A DNA stretch of 64,000 nucleotides. Source: Gemmatimonadota bacterium (lineage in GTDB: Bacteria; JBHIER01; G020348925). Location of the stretch: positions 3,735,688 to 3,799,687 of the forward strand of contig CP070758.1 of NCBI GenBank assembly GCA_020348925.1. The letters run 5' to 3'. Each line of letters opens with the position of its first letter. The first letter of the stretch is position 1. A model generated the notes under the pieces. It had not been told where the DNA came from. It saw nothing but the letters and a program-made list of their open reading frames with translations, and did not search any database. Shown here in pieces: positions 43,402 to 64,000 of this stretch. Both the position numbers and the translations under genes were made by a program.

Positions 43402-45807
43402 ATGATAAGCGGACGGCTCTTTGCTATGATAGCTATTTGTGTCATTATAATTCTCAGTACATCCGTGATGCTTCATGCAGAAAGCTTTTTAGACTATGCT
43501 GAAGGTGCGGCCGAATGGTTGATGAATGAGGCCAGAGTCGATGGAAACGGATACAAGTGGCCTGATGTCGCTGATGGTGGTTATCATTCTACAGACCTGT
43601 ATTATGGTTCTCCTGGAATTGTCAAACTTTTCTCAAGGCTCTATGAGACAACCGGGAAGGAGCAATATCGCCATTATGCAACAGGTGGTGCTCAATGGCT
43701 TATCGACGAAGCGGTGCCAGAGGGTGGTGGTTACAAATGGCCGATGATACAACGGCTCTCTTCGTATGGGATAGGATTCTACACAGGAGTGACAGGGACT
43801 GGAGATGCCTTTGCCGATCTCTATGAGATCTTTTCGGATACACGGTATCTGAACCATGCCATGGGAGCGGCGGATTGGCTTTTACATGTGGCCGTCTTTG
43901 AAGGACCGGATATATGTAAATGGCCTTATACTCAAAACTCCGGATCGTATTATACTGACATAATTGGTGGTGTGGCAGGTGTTGGCCTCTTTTTATTGAG
44001 GATGTATGAGTTGGACGGAAACCAGAAATATCTGGAGTATGCAAGATACGGAGGTAATTGGCTGGTGAGTCAGGCTATTCCTGACGGGAACGGATACAAG
44101 TGGAAAATGTCTACTGGTTCGCATAAGATCTTTACCGGCTTCTCACACGGTGCGGCAGGAATCGGGTATTTTTTAGCAGAGCTGTTCCGTGTTTCGGGTG
44201 ACGATATTTATTTGGAATATGCGAAAGGTGCAGCCCAGTGGTTGATGGATGTAGCCATTGAAACAGAACATGAGTGTACATGGTGGAGTGAAGAAAGCGA
44301 AAGGAGTGTGTTTTTTAGTACAGGATGGTGTCACGGTCCTGCCGGAACCTGCCTTATCTTTATGAAACTATATGCGATTACGACCGAAGAGAGATACCTG
44401 GCATACGCCGAAAAAGGGGCGAACTGGTCGGTCAACGTTGCTATTCCTGATGGCGGTGGTTACAGGTGGCCATATACGGTAGCGAGTGGCTTCTCCGATG
44501 TTACTTTTTGCCATGGGGTTACAGGAGTTGGGAAATTTCTTCTCGATTTTTACACTCTGACCCGTAATGAACACTGGCTGAAGTACGCCAAAGGGGCGGC
44601 ATTCTGGCTTGGGAGTATTGCTGACACTTCTGCCGGTGGTTACCGCTGGGAAAGCTTTGATTTCTATAACACTGGATACTCCCTTGGCACAGCGGGAATA
44701 GGACTCTTTTTCCTGGACAATATGGAATACAACTGGCCCCCAATAATAAAACCAATAACAGAACAGGCGGACCAGTATTACAACACCGCCCCGATACTCT
44801 CCACTTTCGGTTTCTACGATGACATGGGACTGGTTGATGGTTGGTATCAGATAGATTCGTATGAAGGCACATGGACAATCCTCTTCTCCGATATCTCCGG
44901 GACGTCCTGGGACAAGGAAGATTGGTCCATCCCAGGATTTTCAGATCTTCCGGACGGCAGTCACACGATCTATTTCAAAGCCTCAGACGACTCAGGGGCT
45001 GTGGAGGGGGAGTCGGGTGAATGGAGCTGGCAGTTTTTCAAGGATACGACGCCACCGTCTGCTGGGACAATCTCCATACAGAACGGTGCGGATACAATCA
45101 ACTCGCTGATGGTGAGCCTGGATGCCTTGACTGCATCCGATACATTGAGCGGTCTCTCTCAGATGCAATTCAGCAACGACGGCAACAACTGGTCTTCACA
45201 TGAAGAATATTCTCCAACGAGACCGGATTGGGACCTGTCGGCTTACGGCGGAAATCATTTCTCCGGAACGAAGAGAGTGTGCGTGAAATACAAAGACGTG
45301 GCCGGTAATTGGTCGGAGTCTTTTTCTGATGAAACAGTCTGTATTCTTCCTTTAGCTATAGTGACAGATTCACTGACGAACGGTATCGTGGGAGTCCCGT
45401 ACAATCAGACCCTCGAAGCGTGGGGCGGTTGGCATCCCTACCGCTGGAACCTGGAAGCCGGCTCTTTACCGCTGGGACTCACTTTCGACACGACTGGTGT
45501 GATAGCAGGTGTACCGAATGCATCGGATACGATCTCTCTGACACTAAAGGTGACCGATTCAACCTCGGCCATATGTACACAGGATCTCGAACTCACAATC
45601 ACTGAGGGTTACAAAGGGGACATCAACGGTGACGGTCAGATCAACATTATTGACGTGGTTAGGCTCGTGAATTCCATTCTCAACAACCGCGATCTCACAC
45701 CCAACGAGCACTGGACTGCCGACTGCAATGGCGATGGGAGCGTGGACATTTTAGATGCTTTGGGTATTATCAATGTGATACTGGGTGTGGGCGAGTGTGA
45801 ACCATAA
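43402..45807 (+). CDS. Secreted lanthionine synthetase C (LanC)-like protein with Ig-like domains and a dockerin
   Basis: AAGGAGG RBS; signal peptide; seven GxxG repeats including GFSHGAAG, GWCHGPAG, FCHGVTG; putative Ig domain (G.LP.GLT...G.I.G.P); GDINGDG.INIID. Confidence 0.85.
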   Translation: MISGRLFAMIAICVIIILSTSVMLHAESFLDYAEGAAEWLMNEARVDGNGYKWPDVADGGYHSTDLYYGSPGIVKLFSRLYETTGKEQYRHYATGGAQWLIDEAVPEGGGYKWPMIQRLSSYGIGFYTGVTGTGDAFADLYEIFSDTRYLNHAMGAADWLLHVAVFEGPDICKWPYTQNSGSYYTDIIGGVAGVGLFLLRMYELDGNQKYLEYARYGGNWLVSQAIPDGNGYKWKMSTGSHKIFTGFSHGAAGIGYFLAELFRVSGDDIYLEYAKGAAQWLMDVAIETEHECTWWSEESERSVFFSTGWCHGPAGTCLIFMKLYAITTEERYLAYAEKGANWSVNVAIPDGGGYRWPYTVASGFSDVTFCHGVTGVGKFLLDFYTLTRNEHWLKYAKGAAFWLGSIADTSAGGYRWESFDFYNTGYSLGTAGIGLFFLDNMEYNWPPIIKPITEQADQYYNTAPILSTFGFYDDMGLVDGWYQIDSYEGTWTILFSDISGTSWDKEDWSIPGFSDLPDGSHTIYFKASDDSGAVEGESGEWSWQFFKDTTPPSAGTISIQNGADTINSLMVSLDALTASDTLSGLSQMQFSNDGNNWSSHEEYSPTRPDWDLSAYGGNHFSGTKRVCVKYKDVAGNWSESFSDETVCILPLAIVTDSLTNGIVGVPYNQTLEAWGGWHPYRWNLEAGSLPLGLTFDTTGVIAGVPNASDTISLTLKVTDSTSAICTQDLELTITEGYKGDINGDGQINIIDVVRLVNSILNNRDLTPNEHWTADCNGDGSVDILDALGIINVILGVGECEP

Positions 45808-49193: not shown

Positions 49194-52100
49194 CTAAACT
49201 TCTGAAGTCTTTTCCCCTTTCGAACTGGACTCCACAACAGGCACGAACTGCTTTCTGTCCATCACCGTGTAGAGGGTTGGGATAACAACCAGGGTCAGGA
49301 TCGTCGAGGTGAGCATCCCGCCGATAACGGCGATGGCCATGGGTGACCTGATCTCGGCCCCCTCACCGAAGCCCAGGGCCATGGGCAAAAGGGCCAGGAC
49401 TGTGGTGGCCGTCGTCATGAGAATGGGACGGAGACGCACGCGGCCCGCCTGGATGACAGCCTCGTACTTCTCGATACCGCGACGCCGCAACCGGTTTATA
49501 TAATCGATGAGGACGATGGCGTTGTTGACGACGATGCCGGCCAGCAAGATCACTCCGATGAGGACGACGACGCTGATCGTTTGGCCGGTCAGGAGCAGTG
49601 CCGCGACGACACCGATGAGGGCCAACGGTAACGAGAACATAATGACGAAGGGATGGAGGAGCGATTCGAACTGAGAGGCCATCACGAGGTAGACCAGAAA
49701 AATGGCCAGGAGCAGGGCAAAGCGCAGTGAGGCAAACGACACCATCATTTCCTCATTCTGACCGGCCAGAGAGGCTGAAAAAGTTGGCGGCAGCGTCACC
49801 GATCGGATTCGTTCCCCGGCCTCGCGGGAGACACTGCCCAGGTCACGACCGACCACATTTGCGGTGACGAGGGCCGTCCGCTGCTGGCCCAGCCGATGGA
49901 TCTGACTGGGACCGATATCGACCCGCACATCGGCCACGGAACTGAGGTTGACCGGCACCTCAGCCTCAGGATTGATGGTCAGGTTTCTGATCCGATCGAT
50001 GGTCGCCCGGTTTCCCTCCGTTGCCCGCACCAGAATATCGATGCGGCGCTCTCCGATGGCAAACCGCGAGGGGATATCTCCCTTGATCCGGTTTCTGACC
50101 AGCCGGGAAATCTCATAAATATCCAGCCCCAGAGCGGCGACCCGCTCCCGGTCAAAGACGATCTGAACCTCGGGATTGCCGGCTTCAAGGTTCGACTGGA
50201 CATCGGTCAAGCCTTCAATTGTGCTCAAAGCGGCGACGACGCGGTCGGCGCTCTCTTTCAACCGCTCGATGTTAAATCCCGTCACTTCCACCTCGATCGG
50301 TGTCTTAAAGGTGAAGTAGGTGGGCGACAGGAATTCCGCCTCAGCGTCCGGCACCCGGGTCAGCTCCCGGCGCATCAGCTCTTTTACATGAGCCTCCGCC
50401 TTCTTGTCGGTCGGATCCTTCATCACCACCTTCAGTTCACCATGATTTTCCCCCTCCATCTCTGTATCGGCCGTCATCCTGTTGCCGGTGCCCACTATAC
50501 TGTAAATTTTTTCCACGCGGGGATCATCCCTGACAGCCTGCTCAATGCGGTTGAGCAGGACGTCCGAGACGTCAATCGGCGTCCCCACGGGAAAATCGAC
50601 GGCCAGGGTAAATTCACCCTGGGAGAACTGGGGGATGAGCTCCATGCCCAAAAAGGAGATCGCCAGAAGCGAGACGACAAAGATGATGAGGGCCGACGCC
50701 AGCACCGCACCCTTATTGTTGAGAGCCCACCCGAGAAAGTGGGGATAGGCCTTGGCCAGGACCGGGAACCCTCTGTCAAACCAACTGAGCAAGATTTTGA
50801 GAACAAGCAGCAATCCGATGGCCAGGGGAACGGCCAGACCATAGGTTTGCGGTTTCAGCCCCTGTCCGGTCAGGGTGAAAAAAATGAGGAGTCCGGCGTA
50901 GGCCAGGAGAAACGCGCCCAGCCTCTTCCCCACCCACTTGCCAACGACGACCAGTGTATAAAAAAAGTTCGTGAACAGAAACACGATCAGGGAGAAAATC
51001 AGGGTGACGGCGAAACGAACGATGAAAAAGGGCGGCTTGAGAATGTTCCAGGGAATACGGATGATGGGAATGAACGCTCTCACCACCTGGCACCACAGAA
51101 ATCGTACTGGAATGAGGATTGTTTTCCATGCGGTCAGCACCGAGAACTTTATCCGGGTTACCTTCTCCCTTTTCGCTCTCGTCGGAACGCGACAGATTGC
51201 TCTCACTTCACCGGGATACTGTTCCAGGAAGCGATGCTTTGCCTCCCATCTGTCCTCTCCGCTGCAGACGACGCCATTCTCGCGGAGGGCCACGAACCTG
51301 CCGCCGTGTTGAGCGACCAGTTCACGCCAGTGCTTCCGAAACCATACTTTTTGACGGGTTTTCACGGTGTAGCGTTTCTCGGCCGTTTTCACCCAGTACA
51401 ATTCCCTCACGAACCACCCCGGTATACTCATCAGAAAACGGAGGAGGAGATAAAACGGTAGAAGGAAGTAGAGGGGCCACCTATAGCTGTCAACATAGGT
51501 TTTGCCGGTCTGCCCCATCCAACGCAGGATCGAAGCATGATTCCACAACCACAGGCCGATGCCGCTGACGCCTTCCCACGCCAGACGGAGGACATAGGTG
51601 ATGAGAAATCGCAGAGCCCAGATGAAGGTCCGCAGCCACCTCAGTATGAGGCGTTTTTCGCGCCATGCGGATCGTGAACCCCGGCGTGACACATGCGCCC
51701 GCGTTATTCTCTGCAACCAGACGGTCGTCGTCTTCTCCACAACAGCGCCCCCGCGGTGCTCCCGTGACGCGATCATGGGAATGAGTGTCAGGGCGATGAT
51801 GAGAGAGACGATCAGCGAGAAGGTGATGGTCAGGGCCTGATCCCTGAAGAGCTGGCCGGCAACACCCTTGATAAAAATGATCGGGAAGAAGACGCAGATG
51901 GTCGTCAGTGTCGAAGCGATGACGGCAGTACCTACCTCGCTGGCCCCTTTGTTGGCGGCTTCGAACAGACCGAACCCCTCCTTTCGGTATCTGTCAATAC
52001 TTTCCAAAACCACGATGGAGTTATCCACGAGCATACCCACGCCCAGAGCGAGCCCCCCCAGGGACATGATGTTGAGTGTGACCTTGCCGAAATACATGGC

Positions 52101-53213
52101 CAGAAAGGTGGCGATGACCGAAGCCGGAATGGCAAAACCGATGATGGCCGTACTGCGCATGTTCTTCAGAAAAAAGAAGAGGACGATCATGGCCAACAGA
52201 CCGCCGATGATGGCCGAATCCCGAACCTCGCCCACCGCCCGCTGGATGAACCGGGACTGATCGGAGACGGTCGTCAGCTTCATTGAACCCAACGCCTGCG
52301 GCGTGTACGATCTGAGGCGTCTGGTTACATGTCGCGCCACGGCCACCGTGTTGGCATCACCTTCCTTGTAGATGGCGATCTCCACGGCCTCCTGACCATT
52401 GATCCGGGTGATGGCATCCCTTTCCTTGTAAGATTTTGAGACAGCCGCCACATCCTTCAGATAGAACTTCACACCCTCCCTCTGACCGATGACGACATCA
52501 TCGATCTCATCGACACGTTTAAACTGATTGAGCGTGCGAACGAGGTATTCCTCCGTCCCCTCTCTCAGGCTGCCACCCGAAAGATTGACGTTCTCCTGGG
52601 CCAGACGCTGGGAAATCTGGGCGATGCTGAAACCCAGTTGGGCCAATTTGCCCTCATTCACCTCGATGTGGATCTCCTCCTCCAGACCGCCGCTCACTTT
52701 GACCGCCGCCACCCCCTCCACGGTTTCCAGATCCTTCTTCATGTGCTCCTCGGCAAAAATTCGCAGCACGCTGAGCTCCGCCTGGCCCGTGAGCCCGACC
52801 AGAACGATGGGGTCGTTCGAGGGATCAAAACGAAGCAGGATCGGCTGTCTCACCTCCCGGGGAAGGTTCAGGATATCCAGCTTCTGTCGCACCTCCAGGG
52901 CGGCATTGGCCATATCAGTACCCCATTGGAACTCCAGGATGACGTCCGACCAGCCGGATCTTGAAATCGAACTCATGTTCAAGAGGTTTCTGACTGTACC
53001 AACCGATTCTTCAACAGGCTTGGTCACCAGATTCTCGACCTCGGCGGGTGCAGCCCCTTCGAATTCCGTCCGTATCGTCAGGGTCGGATAGGTCAGCTCC
53101 GGCAGGAGATTCACCCGCAATCGCTGAAGGGATACCAGTCCGAAGAGCAGCACCGCCAGGGTGAACATGGCTACGGTAACGGGGCGTTTTGTCGAAAGCT
53201 CAATTATTTTCAT
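49194..53213 (-). CDS. RND efflux permease with a large central insertion
   Basis: Same RND motifs; 1339 aa versus 1016 aa for the neighbour. Confidence 0.93.
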   Translation of the reverse strand: MKIIELSTKRPVTVAMFTLAVLLFGLVSLQRLRVNLLPELTYPTLTIRTEFEGAAPAEVENLVTKPVEESVGTVRNLLNMSSISRSGWSDVILEFQWGTDMANAALEVRQKLDILNLPREVRQPILLRFDPSNDPIVLVGLTGQAELSVLRIFAEEHMKKDLETVEGVAAVKVSGGLEEEIHIEVNEGKLAQLGFSIAQISQRLAQENVNLSGGSLREGTEEYLVRTLNQFKRVDEIDDVVIGQREGVKFYLKDVAAVSKSYKERDAITRINGQEAVEIAIYKEGDANTVAVARHVTRRLRSYTPQALGSMKLTTVSDQSRFIQRAVGEVRDSAIIGGLLAMIVLFFFLKNMRSTAIIGFAIPASVIATFLAMYFGKVTLNIMSLGGLALGVGMLVDNSIVVLESIDRYRKEGFGLFEAANKGASEVGTAVIASTLTTICVFFPIIFIKGVAGQLFRDQALTITFSLIVSLIIALTLIPMIASREHRGGAVVEKTTTVWLQRITRAHVSRRGSRSAWREKRLILRWLRTFIWALRFLITYVLRLAWEGVSGIGLWLWNHASILRWMGQTGKTYVDSYRWPLYFLLPFYLLLRFLMSIPGWFVRELYWVKTAEKRYTVKTRQKVWFRKHWRELVAQHGGRFVALRENGVVCSGEDRWEAKHRFLEQYPGEVRAICRVPTRAKREKVTRIKFSVLTAWKTILIPVRFLWCQVVRAFIPIIRIPWNILKPPFFIVRFAVTLIFSLIVFLFTNFFYTLVVVGKWVGKRLGAFLLAYAGLLIFFTLTGQGLKPQTYGLAVPLAIGLLLVLKILLSWFDRGFPVLAKAYPHFLGWALNNKGAVLASALIIFVVSLLAISFLGMELIPQFSQGEFTLAVDFPVGTPIDVSDVLLNRIEQAVRDDPRVEKIYSIVGTGNRMTADTEMEGENHGELKVVMKDPTDKKAEAHVKELMRRELTRVPDAEAEFLSPTYFTFKTPIEVEVTGFNIERLKESADRVVAALSTIEGLTDVQSNLEAGNPEVQIVFDRERVAALGLDIYEISRLVRNRIKGDIPSRFAIGERRIDILVRATEGNRATIDRIRNLTINPEAEVPVNLSSVADVRVDIGPSQIHRLGQQRTALVTANVVGRDLGSVSREAGERIRSVTLPPTFSASLAGQNEEMMVSFASLRFALLLAIFLVYLVMASQFESLLHPFVIMFSLPLALIGVVAALLLTGQTISVVVLIGVILLAGIVVNNAIVLIDYINRLRRRGIEKYEAVIQAGRVRLRPILMTTATTVLALLPMALGFGEGAEIRSPMAIAVIGGMLTSTILTLVVIPTLYTVMDRKQFVPVVESSSKGEKTSEV

Positions 53214-58954: not shown

Positions 58955-59594
58955 AGAGTGGAAACTTTATGTCATTACAGACCGTTGCCTGTCCAAAGGG
59001 CGGACGAATGAGGAAGTAGTCTGCGAAGCGATATCAGGCGGTGCTGATGTTATTCAGTTTCGCGACAAGGAAGCCTCCACAGCCGAGTTCTACAGGGAGG
59101 CCGTCATCTTGCGAAAGGTGACAAAAGCATCGGATGTCCCATTCATCATAAATGACAGAATTGATGTCGCTCGCGCTGTGGAGGCTGATGGCGTCCACCT
59201 GGGACAAGATGATCTCCCTGTATCAGTGGCTCGAGACATCTTGGGGCCGAATAAAATCGTTGGAATTTCGACCCATTCACTCGAACAGGCCCTGATCGCC
59301 TCCTTGAAGAGACCCGACTATATAAGCATCGGCCCCATCTACTCCACGAAAACGAAAAAGACGGGCCCTCCTGTCGGGGTGGACGTCATCCGTCAGATTA
59401 AAGAGAACATTTCTATCCCAATCGTGGCTATAGGAGGAATCACTTTGGAGACTGTGAGTGCGGTCTCCCAAAGTGGTGCCGACTGCATCGCCCTCATCTC
59501 CTCAGTGGTGAGCGCAGATGACATTGCGGGTACTGTTCGGAAGTTCGAGGCAAAAAGAAAAACATTCAGCACTGACGAGGAGGCGAAGATGTAG
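58941..59594 (+). CDS. thiE: Thiamine-phosphate synthase
   Basis: LYVITD, QFRDK, INDR.D, GVHLGQDD, STH, T.TK, AIGGI. Confidence 0.96.
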   Translation: MKRVEEWKLYVITDRCLSKGRTNEEVVCEAISGGADVIQFRDKEASTAEFYREAVILRKVTKASDVPFIINDRIDVARAVEADGVHLGQDDLPVSVARDILGPNKIVGISTHSLEQALIASLKRPDYISIGPIYSTKTKKTGPPVGVDVIRQIKENISIPIVAIGGITLETVSAVSQSGADCIALISSVVSADDIAGTVRKFEAKRKTFSTDEEAKM

Positions 59595-59715
59595 AAGAGA
59601 ACCTCGTTGAATTGAGCGTGTGATTTTTTTTGAAAGTGTCGCTTTCTCCCCCCCATTCTTTTACTCTTTTAATAACAAAATCTTAATTGAAACATGCCAT
59701 CATGTCGAAAGGAAG

Positions 59716-59757
59716 TGTCGAATTTTTTTAACACTCCATAGTGTCCCATTTGAGACA
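59716..59757 (+). promoter_or_regulatory. Candidate enhancer (UAS) sites for a sigma54 activator
   Basis: Imperfect palindromes TGTCGAATTTTTTTAACA (59716-59733) and TGTCCCATTTGAGACA (59742-59757), about 80-120 nt upstream of the -24 box. Confidence 0.45.
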
Positions 59758-59833
59758 GGATACACGTCAAAGAAACTTCGTATCCTTTTTACTTTTCTGG
59801 TCTTATATCCGATTACCATCATGACTCTCAAAA

Positions 59834-59849
59834 TGGCATACAATTTGCA
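59834..59849 (+). promoter_or_regulatory. sigma54 -24/-12 promoter
   Basis: TGGCATACAATTTGCA, with exact GG/GC spacing, 60 nt before the REC gene. Confidence 0.75.
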
Positions 59850-59909
59850 AAAAAAAGACACATCTCTAACACCGGACTGTTCTCTTGAATAAGACAAAGG
59901 GGGTGTACA

Positions 59910-60383
59910 ATGCCAGATCAACGCTTAAAAATTCTTGTGGTTGATGATGATGAAGGAGTAAGAGATTCTTTGAAAGTCATCTTAGAGGATGAGTACGATG
60001 TATGGGATGCCGATGGAGGCAAAAAGGCGCTGAACGTTTTCATGAGCATGAAGCCAAACCTCGTTTTTTTGGACCTGGTACTCCCGGACATGGGGGGGGT
60101 TGATGTCCTTGAGAAAATAAAGCGCCTTTGTCCGATGACACCGGTGGTTATTCTCACGGCGTACTCAAATATTAACAGTGCATTACATGCAATAGAGAGT
60201 GGAGCGAGCGATTATATTCCCAAGCCTTTCAGCGTTGAGGAAATTCAGGTGAGAACGGCCGAACTGTTGGGCAATGAGAAGAACAGACCTCTCGATTGCG
60301 AGAGTTTCCGTCAGAGGTGGTTAACGAGAAAGAAGGACATCAGGGAACGGTTTCTCACGACGGCTTTCGTACCCACCTCATAG
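59910..60383 (+). CDS. Single-domain response regulator (REC + short basic tail)
   Basis: ILVVDDD, LVFLD..LP, ILTA, DYIPKP; no recognisable output domain. Confidence 0.92.
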   Translation: MPDQRLKILVVDDDEGVRDSLKVILEDEYDVWDADGGKKALNVFMSMKPNLVFLDLVLPDMGGVDVLEKIKRLCPMTPVVILTAYSNINSALHAIESGASDYIPKPFSVEEIQVRTAELLGNEKNRPLDCESFRQRWLTRKKDIRERFLTTAFVPTS

Positions 60384-60422
60384 ACCGTTCATTGCACTCA
60401 TCGACGGAAAGGATCTGAAAAA

Positions 60423-61784
60423 GTGCGTATACTGTTTGTTGATCCGGCCCCACGCAGTGGGATTGTCGAACCGTATGAACATTTGGGTCTCGGTTATTTG
60501 TGCGCAGCATTGGGCGGAAAGGGGTACGAGGTTGATACGCTCAGTGTCCCTTTGCAGAATCTCTCCGCACACCGACTTGTGAGAGAGATCATGAAGACCG
60601 ACCCCCATATCCTCGGTTTTTCCGTGAAGGAGATCAACGCCCGGCGCACTTTTCGATTGATCCGAAAATTACAGAGCGCCGGATTAAATTGCCACATCAC
60701 ACTGGGAGGCCATTTCCCGACTTTCAACCATGCCCGGATTCTTCATGATTTTCCGGAGGTGGACTCCGTCGTTCGTGGAGAGGGAGAAGACACCATCGTA
60801 GAATTGATGAGGGCTTTGGCCGACGGCGGCTCCTTAGCAGGCATCCCCGGCCTTACGTACAGGGAGGGCAATAATATCAGGGAAAATCCTCCCCGGCCCT
60901 TGATCGAGGATTTGGATCGCCTTCCCTTTCCTTCGAGGAACATGACACCACGCGTCATTGATCAAGGCGGAGCCATCGGTCTGGTGGCCTCCCGGGGATG
61001 CTATGCCAACTGCTCCTTCTGCAGCATACGATCATTCTACGGCACCTCCTCAGGTCCCAAATGGCGAGCCCGGTCACCGAAACACGTTGTGGATGAAATT
61101 GAAATGCTTGCCTCCGCCTTCCCCGGGATCCCCTTCAAGTTTGCCGACGACCAATTCATCGGGCCCGGCGAGAGAGGAAAAACGTGGGCCCTCAACCTGG
61201 CTTCGGAAATAAGGAAGAGAAACCTTTCCGTCCAATTTATCGTATCCTGCCGCGTGGACGCCGTTGAGCAAGACCTGTTCGCTTCGTTGAAGGAGGCCGG
61301 TTTGAAAAAGGTCTTCATAGGCGTTGAATCGGGAACCCAGCAGGGATTGGACCGCTTCAACAAAAAGACCACCGTTGAACAGAACAAAAGAGCGCTGAAG
61401 ATCTTAGAAGCGGTCCGTGTCGCATACACTATAGCCTTCATCTTTTTCGACCCGTATTCGACCATGGAGGACGTGAAGGGAAATTTGGAGTTTCTGTCAG
61501 ATATCCGCCCCTACTGGCATGGCAAAAAGGGTATTCTCTCCATAGAACCGTCGATTACGGTCCATAAAGGAACCCCCATCGAACAACGATTGAGAAACGA
61601 CGGACAGTTGCTGGGTGATTATTTAGGTTACCGATACCGAATCAAGGATCGTCGCATCCAGTATGTCCGCTTCATAGTAGATTTTTTCATACGACGTGTG
61701 ATGCCTACCTATCACACGTTAAATCTCAGAGGGAAAACTATCAGAAACAGGGCACATGAGTTCTTTCATCACGTTGGCAACTAA
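60423..61784 (+). CDS. Cobalamin-binding radical SAM enzyme
   Basis: LGLGYL.A.L and GGHFPT B12 domain; SRGCYANCSFC (CxxxCxxC); GVESG. Confidence 0.93.
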   Translation: MRILFVDPAPRSGIVEPYEHLGLGYLCAALGGKGYEVDTLSVPLQNLSAHRLVREIMKTDPHILGFSVKEINARRTFRLIRKLQSAGLNCHITLGGHFPTFNHARILHDFPEVDSVVRGEGEDTIVELMRALADGGSLAGIPGLTYREGNNIRENPPRPLIEDLDRLPFPSRNMTPRVIDQGGAIGLVASRGCYANCSFCSIRSFYGTSSGPKWRARSPKHVVDEIEMLASAFPGIPFKFADDQFIGPGERGKTWALNLASEIRKRNLSVQFIVSCRVDAVEQDLFASLKEAGLKKVFIGVESGTQQGLDRFNKKTTVEQNKRALKILEAVRVAYTIAFIFFDPYSTMEDVKGNLEFLSDIRPYWHGKKGILSIEPSITVHKGTPIEQRLRNDGQLLGDYLGYRYRIKDRRIQYVRFIVDFFIRRVMPTYHTLNLRGKTIRNRAHEFFHHVGN

Positions 61785-61874
61785 TGGAAGAGACCGTTTA
61801 TAACCTAAGATCTTGAGGGAACATTTACCACAACTATTCAATATTTCATTCCACGAAGAAAGGAGGTGAAAGGA

Positions 61875-61967
61875 ATGAGAAAAATGTATCGTCTTATAAG
61901 TTTGGTTGCTTCGATTGTGTTCGCTCTGTGTACAATACAAAGATATCCCCCTCTCACTGCAGCATGA
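61875..61967 (+). CDS. Unannotated 30-aa peptide MRKMYRLISLVASIVFALCTIQRYPPLTAA (candidate precursor/signal peptide)
   Basis: AAAGGAGGTGAAAGGA-ATG strong RBS; directly after the rSAM gene and before a terminator. Confidence 0.7.
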   Translation: MRKMYRLISLVASIVFALCTIQRYPPLTAA

Positions 61968-62021
61968 TATCGGAGTAATTATGCCTACCAGATAAAGGCG
62001 TTTGGCTCTTAGTCGGAAACA

Positions 62022-62065
62022 TAAAAAAGAGGCACGATTGAGGAAAAAATGGTGCCTCTTTTTTA
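62022..62065 (+). terminator. Intrinsic (possibly bidirectional) terminator
   Basis: TAAAAAAGAGGCAC-N16-GTGCCTCTTTTTTA perfect 14-bp inverted repeat with U-tract. Confidence 0.75.
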
Positions 62066-62125
62066 ATGCCTTGCTATTTGAAAAATTTCATTGTATTATT
62101 TCTGGAGAAATGAAAGGTATGTTAC

Positions 62126-63682
62126 ATGTTCCATTTTCCAAAAATATGCATTATTGCTCTCTTCAGTTTCATTCTCCTGTGTTCCTGTTCCTCGAAAAGA
62201 AACCCTGTCGTTCTTCGTTTTGGTGTTTCAAGTGCTCCATCATCGTTGGATCCGGCAGAGACGGAGGACTTCGTGGCAAGCAAAATATTGGCCAATATGT
62301 TCGATACCTTGGTCAACTATGAGAGGGGTAAGTTTTTCAAGAGGTCAGCCTTAGCCGAATCACTCAGGGTAAATTCTGAAGGAACGATATGGACTTTCTA
62401 TCTGCGTCGGGGCATCACTTTTCACGACGGAACCTCTTTCAATGCTGAAGCCGTGAAAATATCCTTCGACAGGCAAATGAATCCGGAGACCGATTTCTAC
62501 CTCACTGAAAAAAATGTGTATGGAGGCTCGACCTTGAGTATGATCGAACGCATCGACATACTCGACGAGTTCACAGTCCGTTTTCAACTGCACTATCCAT
62601 ATGCTCCTTTTTACCATACGCTGGCCAATTGTTTCGGAGCCTCTATCATCAGCCCATCCGCTCTGAGAAAATTTGGCCCTGAATTCGGGAAACACCCCGT
62701 GGGGACAGGCCCTTTTCGCTTGGCCAGCTGGAAAGAGGGAAAATCGATCACCCTGGTGGCACATGAAACCTATTGGGGAGGTCCGCCAAAGATCGACAGA
62801 GTAGAATTTGTCATAGTCCCTCAATCCATTGACAGAGTGGAGAAGATGCTTGATGGTTCCTTAGACATCATTGAGGATGTCGGAGCGACTTTGATCGATA
62901 AGCTCTATCTAAAACAGGATGTCGAACTAATCTACAGTGAAGATCTCGGGGTGCATGTGCTTGGTTTCAACTGTCAACAAAAACCTTTCAACGATCCAAG
63001 AGTGCGGAAAGCCGTTGCTCTGGCTTTTGATAAAGAGAAATTTGTGCATACGATGCTTCGAGGAAAAGGTCTGGTCGCCTCCAGCCCCCTACCCCCAGCC
63101 CTGGGGACATTTTCTTCGCTATCAGAACAGTTGCCGTATGATCCTGTCGCCGCTCAAAAGCTTTTGGCCCAAGCAGGATATACTCGAGGGTTCTCTGTTG
63201 ACCTGTGGTGTTACTGCATATCGGAACGGGCAGGCGTCCTCCCCTTAGCAATCAAAAAAAATCTTAAAAAGATAGACATCCAGGTCAACATAAAGTATTA
63301 TGAAGATTGGGATGAGTATAATAGAGGCGTTATGAGAGGAGAAGCATCCCTCTTCGTAGACGGATGGAGAGGCAACATAGTAGATCCCGACGGCTTTCTG
63401 TACCCCATTTTCCATTCCCGGGCAAGGAAGAGCGGAGGGAATTTGTTCCATTACTCGAACGCGAGTTTCGATCAATTATTAGAGGAGGCGCGTCGCACAA
63501 TGAATGAACCCACGCGCATGATGCTCTATGATGAGGCACTAAGAATTATTGTTTCGGATTTACCCTGTCTCTTTATCAGTTTCAGTAAAGAGACCTTTGC
63601 CCTTCGAAGTTGTATCGAAGGATTCTCTGTGAATCCTTTGGGTATTGTTCGATTGAATAATGTTGAATACGTACCCCTCTAA
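62126..63682 (+). CDS. Family 5 (DppA/OppA-like) substrate-binding lipoprotein
   Basis: Lipobox LLCSC; SLDPA, F.LR.G..FHDGT.FNAEAVK.SF.R, PVGTGPF, D.RVRKA. Confidence 0.93.
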   Translation: MFHFPKICIIALFSFILLCSCSSKRNPVVLRFGVSSAPSSLDPAETEDFVASKILANMFDTLVNYERGKFFKRSALAESLRVNSEGTIWTFYLRRGITFHDGTSFNAEAVKISFDRQMNPETDFYLTEKNVYGGSTLSMIERIDILDEFTVRFQLHYPYAPFYHTLANCFGASIISPSALRKFGPEFGKHPVGTGPFRLASWKEGKSITLVAHETYWGGPPKIDRVEFVIVPQSIDRVEKMLDGSLDIIEDVGATLIDKLYLKQDVELIYSEDLGVHVLGFNCQQKPFNDPRVRKAVALAFDKEKFVHTMLRGKGLVASSPLPPALGTFSSLSEQLPYDPVAAQKLLAQAGYTRGFSVDLWCYCISERAGVLPLAIKKNLKKIDIQVNIKYYEDWDEYNRGVMRGEASLFVDGWRGNIVDPDGFLYPIFHSRARKSGGNLFHYSNASFDQLLEEARRTMNEPTRMMLYDEALRIIVSDLPCLFISFSKETFALRSCIEGFSVNPLGIVRLNNVEYVPL

Positions 63683-63759: not shown

Positions 63760-64000
63760 ATGAAACTGCGCATCAAATTTCTGTTGTCAATCTCTCTCCT
63801 TATTCTCATGGTGATCGGTGTTATCGTCATCGTGGTCAATCATCTCGAGGAGCGGTCAATTCTCGAGGACAGGGAGATCAGTGCTTTCGATCTTGTCTAT
63901 GTCCTGGCTCACAGTAGTGTCCAAGCCATTGTGGCCGATGATTATTTGGTTCTGCAGGAAATTCTTGATAGCGTTCACAGCAAAAAAGATATCATACAGG
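63760..64000 (+). CDS. Partial membrane sensor (probable HAMP histidine kinase) N-terminus
   Basis: MKLRIKFLLSISLLILMVIGVIVIVV TM helix, then periplasmic 'LA.SS..AI..DDY..LQ.I'; runs off the window, so the kinase core is not visible. Confidence 0.6.
   Translation, partial: MKLRIKFLLSISLLILMVIGVIVIVVNHLEERSILEDREISAFDLVYVLAHSSVQAIVADDYLVLQEILDSVHSKKDIIQ

Follow-up and report, generated by a model that had tools for sequence, protein, structure and literature searches.

A 64,000-nucleotide stretch of a Gemmatimonadota genome (GenBank assembly GCA_020348925.1, contig CP070758.1, positions 3,735,688 to 3,799,687; the whole stretch is called the window below, and position 1 is its first letter) contains a small open reading frame (ORF) of 30 residues directly after the gene for a B12-binding radical S-adenosylmethionine (SAM) enzyme. 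We find that the small ORF is a real, unannotated gene that is under purifying selection over its whole length, and that genes of this kind are bound to one clade of radical SAM enzymes, where they directly follow the enzyme gene. The explanation that we tentatively favor, giving it slightly less than an even chance, is that the small ORF encodes a precursor peptide modified by the radical SAM enzyme, and that the C-terminal part of this peptide would feed a sensor, made up of a binding protein, a kinase and a sigma-54 activator, which drives the operon. The features on which the argument draws, all but the last of them in window coordinates, are as follows.

59703..59722, + strand: two direct TGTCGAA half-sites, about 115–130 bases upstream of the sigma-54 promoter
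59834..59849, + strand: sigma-54-type promoter TGGCAT-N5-TTGCA, 62 bases before the first operon gene
59910..60383, + strand: receiver-only response regulator, first gene of the operon (Pfam Response_reg, E 2e-27)
60423..61784, + strand: B12-binding radical SAM enzyme, 453 residues (Pfam B12-binding and Radical_SAM)
61862..61869, + strand: ribosome-binding site of the small ORF, read directly in the sequence
61875..61967, + strand: small ORF, 30 residues (ATG at 61875, TGA at 61965–61967)
62024..62065, + strand: terminator hairpin closing the radical SAM/peptide operon, from folding
62069..62110, + strand: conserved block with a sigma-70-like promoter (62071–62099) for the sensor operon, from a promoter scan
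62126..63682, + strand: SBP_bac_5 protein (Pfam SBP_bac_5, E 2.6e-88)
63760..64000, + strand: start of a sensor histidine kinase of 616 residues that runs past the window (Pfam)
Locus L096, 4416–5801: sigma-54-dependent response regulator after the kinase (Pfam Response_reg, Sigma54_activat and HTH_8)

An initial annotation, made from the sequence alone, had pointed to a hidden 30-residue ORF with a Shine-Dalgarno sequence. We could confirm this ORF: AGGAGG occupies positions 61862–61867, with a spacing of seven bases to the ATG. An in-frame GTG at 61866 is an unlikely start, since it overlaps the AGGAGG site. The same annotation had proposed a search for small ORFs near radical SAM homologs as well as a check of codon-level conservation, and both turned out in favor of the gene. 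With the enzyme as bait, we scanned 185,579 species genomes twice and metagenome contigs once, and obtained 17 distinct loci in which an ORF of 25–44 codons lies directly 3′ of the radical SAM gene. Many of the peptide-bearing loci are close kin, so that the counts overstate independence. The ratio of nonsynonymous to synonymous substitution rates (dN/dS) was 0.14–0.44 in all seven small-ORF pairs (pairs of equal length), and third codon positions were the most changed in six of the seven. A purine-rich ribosome-binding site lies no more than 20 bases from the ATG in 16 of 16 family ORFs checked. It is this combination of the same place in 17 loci, low dN/dS and retained ribosome-binding sites that identifies the small ORF as a real gene. 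On the opposite strand, an ORF at 61719–61940 shares the register, but it was rejected as coding because its first codon position would vary most.

The nearest relative, G001, which is the only other species of the family among the genomes searched, has the same gene order. Its radical SAM gene, 68% identical to that of the window, is followed after a gap of about 20 bases by a 30-codon ORF with the same ribosome-binding site, then by a hairpin and a binding-protein gene. Between the two species the synonymous sites of the small ORF are saturated (dS 2.6). At shorter range, contigs from four sediment runs over positions 61400–62500 carry an identical small ORF wherever it is covered, a comparison that does not amount to a population-level test. 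In contigs of three of these four runs there is a C>T change at 61748, in the 3′ end of the radical SAM gene. The public runs listed include none of RNA.

Of eight peptides that we looked up, seven, among them the one from the window, do not occur in a collection of about 15 billion predicted proteins, indicating that the gene is hidden from gene callers. The window peptide matches no Pfam or NCBIfam family at E 0.01, a search of positions 59500–62600 against Rfam gave just two chance-level matches far under their gathering scores, and a protein atlas look-up gave no usable match. The host genome is a single 5.04-Mb contig and is 96.3% complete. Searched with a profile built from 15 peptides, its 133,294 short open frames yielded the small ORF itself and nothing else (next match at E 0.45), so the paralogous peptides that were thought worth seeking elsewhere in the genome did not appear.

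The neighboring gene encodes, judging by its domains, a class B (B12-binding) radical SAM enzyme. Its Pfam matches to B12-binding and Radical_SAM have E-values of 6e-17 and 3e-16, and the cluster cysteines C193, C197 and C200 (CxxxCxxC) are invariant in 17 sequences. The enzyme reaches no curated family: all 25 listed NCBIfam matches are far below their cut-offs, the best being BchE, where 169 bits were reached and 481 are required; HpnR, ApyD and TIGR03975, a family of RiPP C-methyltransferases (RiPP, a peptide made by the ribosome and modified after its translation), also stay below theirs. The closest solved structure is OxsB (E 3e-51). The enzyme clade is uncharacterized and the peptide family unannotated.

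How tightly the small ORF is tied to this clade can be seen in a quick tree of 49 radical SAM homologs. All 16 peptide-bearing rows fall into one clade of 22, with a support of 86 in the Shimodaira–Hasegawa-like approximate likelihood-ratio test (SH-aLRT), and the other six rows of that clade are contigs that end before the position of the ORF. In the second scan, the peptide profile matched in nine of 71 loci, and one further ORF was recognized by eye. No comparable small ORF was present in the eight sister-clade radical SAM loci that we inspected. Some genomes have two radical SAM copies of the clade, namely G001 (second contig, locus L177) and one KSB1 metagenome-assembled genome (MAG; loci L028/L135 and L029). 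In L029 the binding-protein gene lies before, rather than after, the enzyme gene. A complex prediction for the enzyme, with its 4Fe-4S cluster and SAM, and the peptide scored 0.03 against a mark of 0.32; having been run without controls, it weighs neither way.

The peptide alignment and the anchored table comprise 15 peptides, with two 44-residue forms kept outside. The window peptide has a basic N-terminus and a net charge of +4, followed by a 16-residue uncharged stretch with a mean Kyte-Doolittle hydropathy of 2.27 and by a polar tail that contains Cys19, Arg23, Tyr24 and Pro25-Pro26 and extends seven residues beyond Arg23. The basic N-region, hydrophobic helix and polar tail of the initial annotation are therefore all in place. 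That annotation had also named Cys, Arg, Tyr and Pro as plausible targets of the radical SAM enzyme, and here the family supports Arg alone. Arg occupies the place of Arg23 in 15 of the 17 peptides (15 of 15 aligned), and the two 44-residue forms have Lys or His. At the position of Cys19, four residues before the Arg, the nearest relative has Gly, as do 10 of 15 peptides (11 of 15 if Cys is counted with Gly), and there is no conserved Cys elsewhere. Tyr24 is replaced elsewhere by Phe or an aliphatic residue. Pro-Pro is confined to the window peptide and its nearest relative, while Pro occurs somewhere in nine of 15 tails.

Further regularities surround the conserved Arg. Six positions before it, 13 of 15 peptides have a small residue or Asn; the basic residue itself lies 6–8 residues from the C-terminal end in 13 of 15; and the tail after the Arg is six or seven residues long in 12 of 15. 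Between clades, the tail is 0–17% identical compared with 36–56% for the head, whereas within clades both are similar. A tail that diverges faster is what one sees in precursors whose leader is conserved and whose core varies. Among the traits of RiPP precursors, the family displays a short ORF next to the enzyme gene and a conserved leader with a basic residue at a fixed distance from the C-terminal end.

The hydrophobic stretch is less uniform. An uncharged run of 13–19 residues is present in 11 of 15 peptides, including the window's, but in the remaining four it comprises only 6–9 residues and by eye appears amphipathic and basic. Being confined to part of the family, the stretch fits a leader better than an obligate membrane anchor. 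Candidate Sec-type features are the 13–19-residue uncharged stretch in 11 of 15 peptides and a small-x-small-like pattern before the Arg; four members have no hydrophobic core. A lipoprotein reading of the peptide was set low: Cys19 after Ala-Leu is loosely lipobox-like, and the Cys is not conserved.

The upstream region suggests how the gene is controlled. The sigma-54-type promoter is the window's sole match at one mismatch or fewer to the consensus, where chance predicts a mean of 1.47 per 64 kb. Its weight thus comes from its position in relatives and not from the lone match in the window: in 15 of 23 loci, several of them close kin, a sigma-54 core with at most one mismatch occurs in the 160 bases preceding the operon, the background for a stretch of that length being 0.0067. 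The gene rpoN was found in the genome. The GG-N10-GC promoter, rpoN and a nearby enhancer-binding activator together make the operon, by prediction, sigma-54-dependent. The receiver protein leads the operon only in this genome and in one family relative, which has a 67% identical copy.

In the nearest clade, loci L017, L018 and L097 have perfect TGTCGAA-based palindromes, with three repeats upstream of the promoter. Another type of perfect palindrome, built on TGCACAAT, is found upstream of the promoter in L022, L128, L136 and L146. These clade-specific palindromes sit 100–220 bases upstream of sigma-54 promoters and are likely activator-binding sites. A search of the window for the relatives' full palindrome, with up to three mismatches allowed, returned nothing. 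TGTCGAA heptamers number 17 in the window, and the pair of half-sites by itself is not significant; it may perhaps be a remnant of an activator-binding site.

At the other end of the operon, the hairpin consists of 13 contiguous pairs and three inner pairs and is flanked 5′ by an A-run and 3′ by a T-run. The region 61968–62075 has a folding z-score of −4.2, and none of 200 shuffles folds as well. The hairpin terminator noted initially is thereby upheld, its contiguous pairs numbering 13 rather than the 14 given at that time. A simple terminator scan passed it over because the loop exceeds the 8-base limit of the scan. Most relatives, too, have a hairpin with a T-rich tail after their small ORF. 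The small ORF and the enzyme gene lie between one sigma-54 promoter and one terminator, a layout from which we infer that enzyme and peptide are co-transcribed.

Beyond the terminator, the block at 62069–62110 is 83% identical in G001 despite the saturation of synonymous sites in the small ORF. The SBP_bac_5 protein that follows has an N-terminal hydrophobic stretch and Cys residues, which by eye resemble a lipoprotein signal, and its nearest solved relatives are DppA, GsiB and HbpA. The kinase consists of sCache_3_2 (residues 30–161), HAMP, PAS, HisKA and HATPase_c domains. A Pfam search of L096 revealed no ATP-binding cassette (ABC) permease genes after the SBP_bac_5 gene, which is followed instead by the kinase and the sigma-54 regulator. 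Since the binding-protein gene adjoins the gene for a kinase with a periplasmic sensor domain and permeases are absent, the module is predicted to be a binding-protein-dependent two-component sensor, in which the SBP_bac_5 protein is probably the ligand-binding partner of the kinase. The locus as a whole is best described as two putative operons, namely a sigma-54 enzyme/peptide unit and a separately promoted sensor unit that encodes the sigma-54 activator.

The same arrangement recurs in the relatives. In tblastn searches, a binding-protein gene was found 3′ of the small ORF in 13 of 15 loci; in the other two the sequence breaks off 37 and about 400 bases past the ORF. In seven of these loci there is a kinase match further on, and in the window's genome the kinase was identified with Pfam. 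Wherever a locus extends far enough, the sigma-54 regulator is present: tblastn identified it in L127, L133, L134 and L146, and Pfam in the window's genome and in G016. The latter, a distant genome, has the same gene order, with the sigma-54 regulator after the kinase. Matches to the binding protein are confined to loci of the peptide clade, outside which L191 gave a lone kinase match. The hosts of the cassette are MAGs labelled Gemmatimonadota, KSB1, Cytophagia or unclassified, and contigs with the radical SAM gene only add Latescibacterota and Zixibacteria. Literature searches, with supplementary files outside their scope, returned no paper on the cassette.

Several loci have additional genes. 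Four loci of one clade (L019 at 1765–2649 on the − strand, L024, L030 and L100) encode a conserved lipoprotein of about 270–295 residues, divergently oriented upstream of the radical SAM gene. The one copy tested, from G016, matched no Pfam family at E 1e-5. We considered this lipoprotein as an exporter or peptidase and rejected it, as it has one hydrophobic segment and is not multi-pass. Beyond its gene, G016 has a CHASE2 adenylate/guanylate cyclase. On the contig shared by L031 and L137, SBP_bac_5 genes stand in tandem after the small ORF (L031 4177–5724 and L137 5985–7514). In the window's own genome the signaling cluster exceeds the core cassette: past the window, L096 6326–8873 (+ strand) encodes a receiver-AraC regulator, a PAS-HisKA protein that as called has no ATPase domain, and a short receiver fragment.

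The sensor is not restricted to B12-binding enzymes. Relatives of the geopeptide maturase model TIGR04280 occur in 37 of 401 genomes, two of them above the family cut-off; in the window's genome the model has no match at E 1e-30. An SBP_bac_5 gene lies beside the TIGR04280-related enzyme in four of the 11 loci searched (L203, L204, L211 and L212), with a kinase match also in L211 and L212 and a sigma-54 regulator match in L204 and L211. In L211 (genome G303) and L212 (genome G026), SPASM-type radical SAM genes directly adjoin the SBP_bac_5 and kinase genes. The four loci of 11 suggest that the sensor set is paired with two unrelated radical SAM classes.

These observations can be combined into a model. 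The target of the radical SAM enzyme would be the peptide's conserved basic residue (Arg23) or a residue near it. The N-terminal part, basic and hydrophobic, would serve as a leader and, in most members, also as a Sec-type signal. A cut behind the small residue that precedes the Arg by four positions would release a peptide of 10–11 residues, which the binding protein would present to the kinase, and the regulator would then activate the sigma-54 promoter, resulting in a positive loop. The small-x-small pattern that precedes the Arg would suit a cut by signal peptidase, although this cannot hold for the four members without a hydrophobic core. Modification, export, cleavage and binding of the peptide are thus all proposed steps. 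The model draws on the coding evidence, the tie to the enzyme, the linkage to the sensor, sigma-54 control and the anatomy of the peptide, as well as on the non-universal hydrophobic stretch, the presence of the sensor set beside a second radical SAM class and the precedent of an SBP_bac_5 protein that acts on the kinase ChiS. The initial annotation had recognized a real gene tied to the radical SAM gene and its pheromone-like layout, and it went too far with the target residues other than Arg and with the likeness to AgrD. The sigma-54 promoter and the kinase/sigma-54 regulator context, which it did not include, change the reading.

A number of observations weigh against a modified and secreted signal. 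On the side of the enzyme, Pfam finds only the B12-binding and Radical_SAM domains and no peptide-recognition domain (PqqD-like), and both OxsB, the nearest structure, and BchE, the best sub-threshold family, act on small molecules. A PqqD-like recognition element is, however, absent from some B12-type peptide-modifying enzymes. The cassette has no conserved exporter or protease gene. Four of 15 peptides have no signal-like hydrophobic core, and therefore Sec export cannot be the general route; moreover, a conserved Arg ending a hydrophobic helix is equally expected of a plain membrane anchor. On the side of the sensor, the two termini-binding residues of E. coli DppA are not kept in the window's binding protein, where the loop alignment is uncertain and says nothing reliable about the ligand; among 12 cassette binding proteins none keeps the DppA Arg and five keep the Asp. 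Proteins of the SBP_bac_5 family also bind sugars, metals and opines.

The main rival assumes an unmodified microprotein in the inner membrane or at the membrane surface, analogous to MgrB, which acts on PhoQ. It would be induced by the two-component system and act back on the kinase, with the enzyme as a separate output. We consider this unlikely, though far from negligible. The basic N-terminus, the uncharged stretch of 13–19 residues in 11 of 15 peptides and the Arg at its end are what such a protein should look like, its gene lies in a regulated operon beside kinase genes, and the absence of an exporter or protease from the cassette also speaks for it. However, four of 15 peptides have only 6–9 uncharged residues in a row, so a membrane span is not common to all members; the ORF occurs with no other radical SAM clade, and its place is always immediately 3′ of the enzyme gene; and the length of the tail and its basic residue are conserved. 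A different role, which we regard as distinctly improbable, is that of an accessory subunit or membrane tether of the enzyme, in which case a lipid or small-molecule product, and not the peptide, would be sensed by the binding protein and kinase. It agrees with the non-peptide substrates of BchE and HpnR, both sub-threshold matches, and of OxsB, the nearest structure, and with a hydrophobic helix being encoded beside the enzyme gene. Yet the hydrophobicity of the peptide varies widely, and the variable tail with its fixed basic residue would be left unexplained. No such small partner is known to us for BchE, HpnR or OxsB.

Three further explanations have very little probability. The size of the peptide, its basic N-terminus and its hydrophobic helix would suit a type I toxin, that is, a hydrophobic membrane-damaging peptide checked by an antisense RNA, and an ORF-free antisense transcript is conceivable. 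This seems very improbable given that the position in a regulated operon is fixed across phyla, that the ribosome-binding site is strong and exposed, that the genome has no paralog (next profile match at E 0.45) and no RNA family match, and that four of 15 members are not hydrophobic. The order of small ORF, hairpin and downstream genes on one strand would equally suit an attenuator, in which translation of a leader peptide controls read-through of the hairpin into the sensor operon. There is just as little to be expected of this idea: the stop codon lies 57 bases before the hairpin, a weaker upstream hairpin does not overlap the terminator and no alternative pairing was seen, purifying selection acts on the amino-acid sequence from end to end, and a conserved promoter-like block comes after the hairpin. 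Finally, a chance ORF without function would be short and uncalled by gene predictors, as this one is. Such an explanation is contradicted by dN/dS and deserves next to no credence, considering that 17 loci share the frame, the length, the ribosome-binding site and a low dN/dS.

Other features of the region fall outside the cassette. At 43402–45807 (+ strand) the window encodes an 801-residue protein in which a LanC-like domain (E 1.7e-38) is joined by a He_PIG Ig domain and a type I dockerin; it is unusual for a secreted, dockerin-bearing protein to have a lanthionine-cyclase-like fold. At 49194–53213 (− strand) an ORF of 1339 residues adjoins one of 1016 residues. The ends of both look by eye like resistance-nodulation-division (RND)-type efflux pumps, and the roughly 300 extra residues of the longer ORF relative to its neighbor suggest a large insertion. 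About 9.8 kb past the small ORF, L096 9767–11287 (+ strand) combines a class I/II aminotransferase with FlgD-Ig and a type IX secretion C-terminal sorting domain, and its product is predicted to be an exported pyridoxal phosphate (PLP) enzyme.

Signaling by modified peptides is well known in Bacillota (Agr, Rgg/SHP, Phr). To our knowledge, it is hardly known in Gram-negative-type and candidate phyla. A broader proposal can be put forward here, which we view as possible but doubtful. In uncultured Gemmatimonadota, KSB1 and their neighbors, a self-inducing peptide signal would be modified in its Arg region, cross the inner membrane, be cut to a piece of 10–11 residues and be handed over by a DppA-like protein to a Cache kinase, whereupon the operon is switched on; the system would be one branch of a broad, unrecognized peptide signaling outside Bacillota. 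The cassette offers a compact test case, with one promoter, the enzyme, a 30-residue peptide, the binding protein, the kinase and the activator, and it is conserved across several phyla with few or no cultured members. Should the proposal be true, it would provide a peptide substrate for a B12 radical SAM clade, the nearest relatives of which have small-molecule substrates, and a ligand for an orphan DppA-like binding protein. It would also mean that small ORFs missed by gene callers can be key parts of regulatory circuits, and it would supply a search rule: a radical SAM gene, a short gap, a binding-protein gene and then a kinase.

Among known systems, AgrD/AgrB was the one first brought to mind by the layout of the peptide. 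The likeness is limited to a small precursor and to sensing by a histidine kinase, which here is proposed. AgrB (PF04647) has no match in the 96.3% complete genome, no Cys of the peptide is conserved, and the kinase is of another type, with a binding-protein partner, so the comparison with AgrD does not hold. Phr, PapR and NprX are Sec-exported pheromone precursors of Bacillota in which the active C-terminal part has 5–11 residues. Together with the short hydrophobic peptides (SHPs), they resemble the present family in their basic, hydrophobic N-terminus, in their OppA/DppA-type binding protein and in a C-terminal active part, which for the present family is proposed. In their case, however, the binding protein feeds a permease, the receptor is a cytoplasmic protein of the RRNPP family and there is no modifying enzyme, whereas the cassette has no permease genes. 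MgrB, too, is a small protein in an operon controlled by a kinase pathway on which it could act. It differs in having no adjoining modifying enzyme and an obligatory membrane span, which four of 15 members of the present family do not have. The geopeptide system (TIGR04280) likewise pairs a small peptide with a radical SAM maturase and was defined computationally; its enzyme is of the SPASM type, whereas that of the window is B12-binding, and the window peptide matches no NCBIfam model.

Two groups of modified peptides come near the enzyme/peptide half of the cassette. Streptococcal radical-SAM-modified peptides (RaS-RiPPs) are under peptide quorum sensing by Rgg/SHP (PMC9389541, PMC13361665). 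They share with the cassette a short precursor beside a radical SAM enzyme and an operon tied to a peptide-sensing circuit, but theirs are SPASM enzymes, a cytoplasmic Rgg reached via the Opp permease and Bacillota hosts. The cassette instead has a B12-binding enzyme, a sensor that combines a kinase and a sigma-54 activator with an extracytoplasmic binding protein, and hosts from uncultured lineages. Clavusporins are hydrophobic ribosomal peptides that are C-methylated by a B12-dependent radical SAM enzyme (PMC10849626) and thus offer the same pairing of a hydrophobic ribosomal peptide with a B12-type enzyme. They are surfactants of actinomycetes and need a DUF5825 partner, and they are not known to come with a sensor module; no DUF5825 protein was seen here.

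For the sensor half, the counterparts are CBP-ChiS and AioX-AioS, the latter with AioR as its sigma-54 partner. Their ligands are chitin oligosaccharides or arsenite and they are not known to involve a peptide gene or a radical SAM enzyme, but they share with the cassette a binding-protein gene beside a kinase with a Cache-like domain, the absence of transporter genes and, through AioR, a sigma-54 output. CBP is an SBP_bac_5 protein that controls the kinase ChiS, and genes for kinase-stimulating binding proteins adjoin signaling genes (PMC8050422), just as the binding-protein gene does in the cassette.

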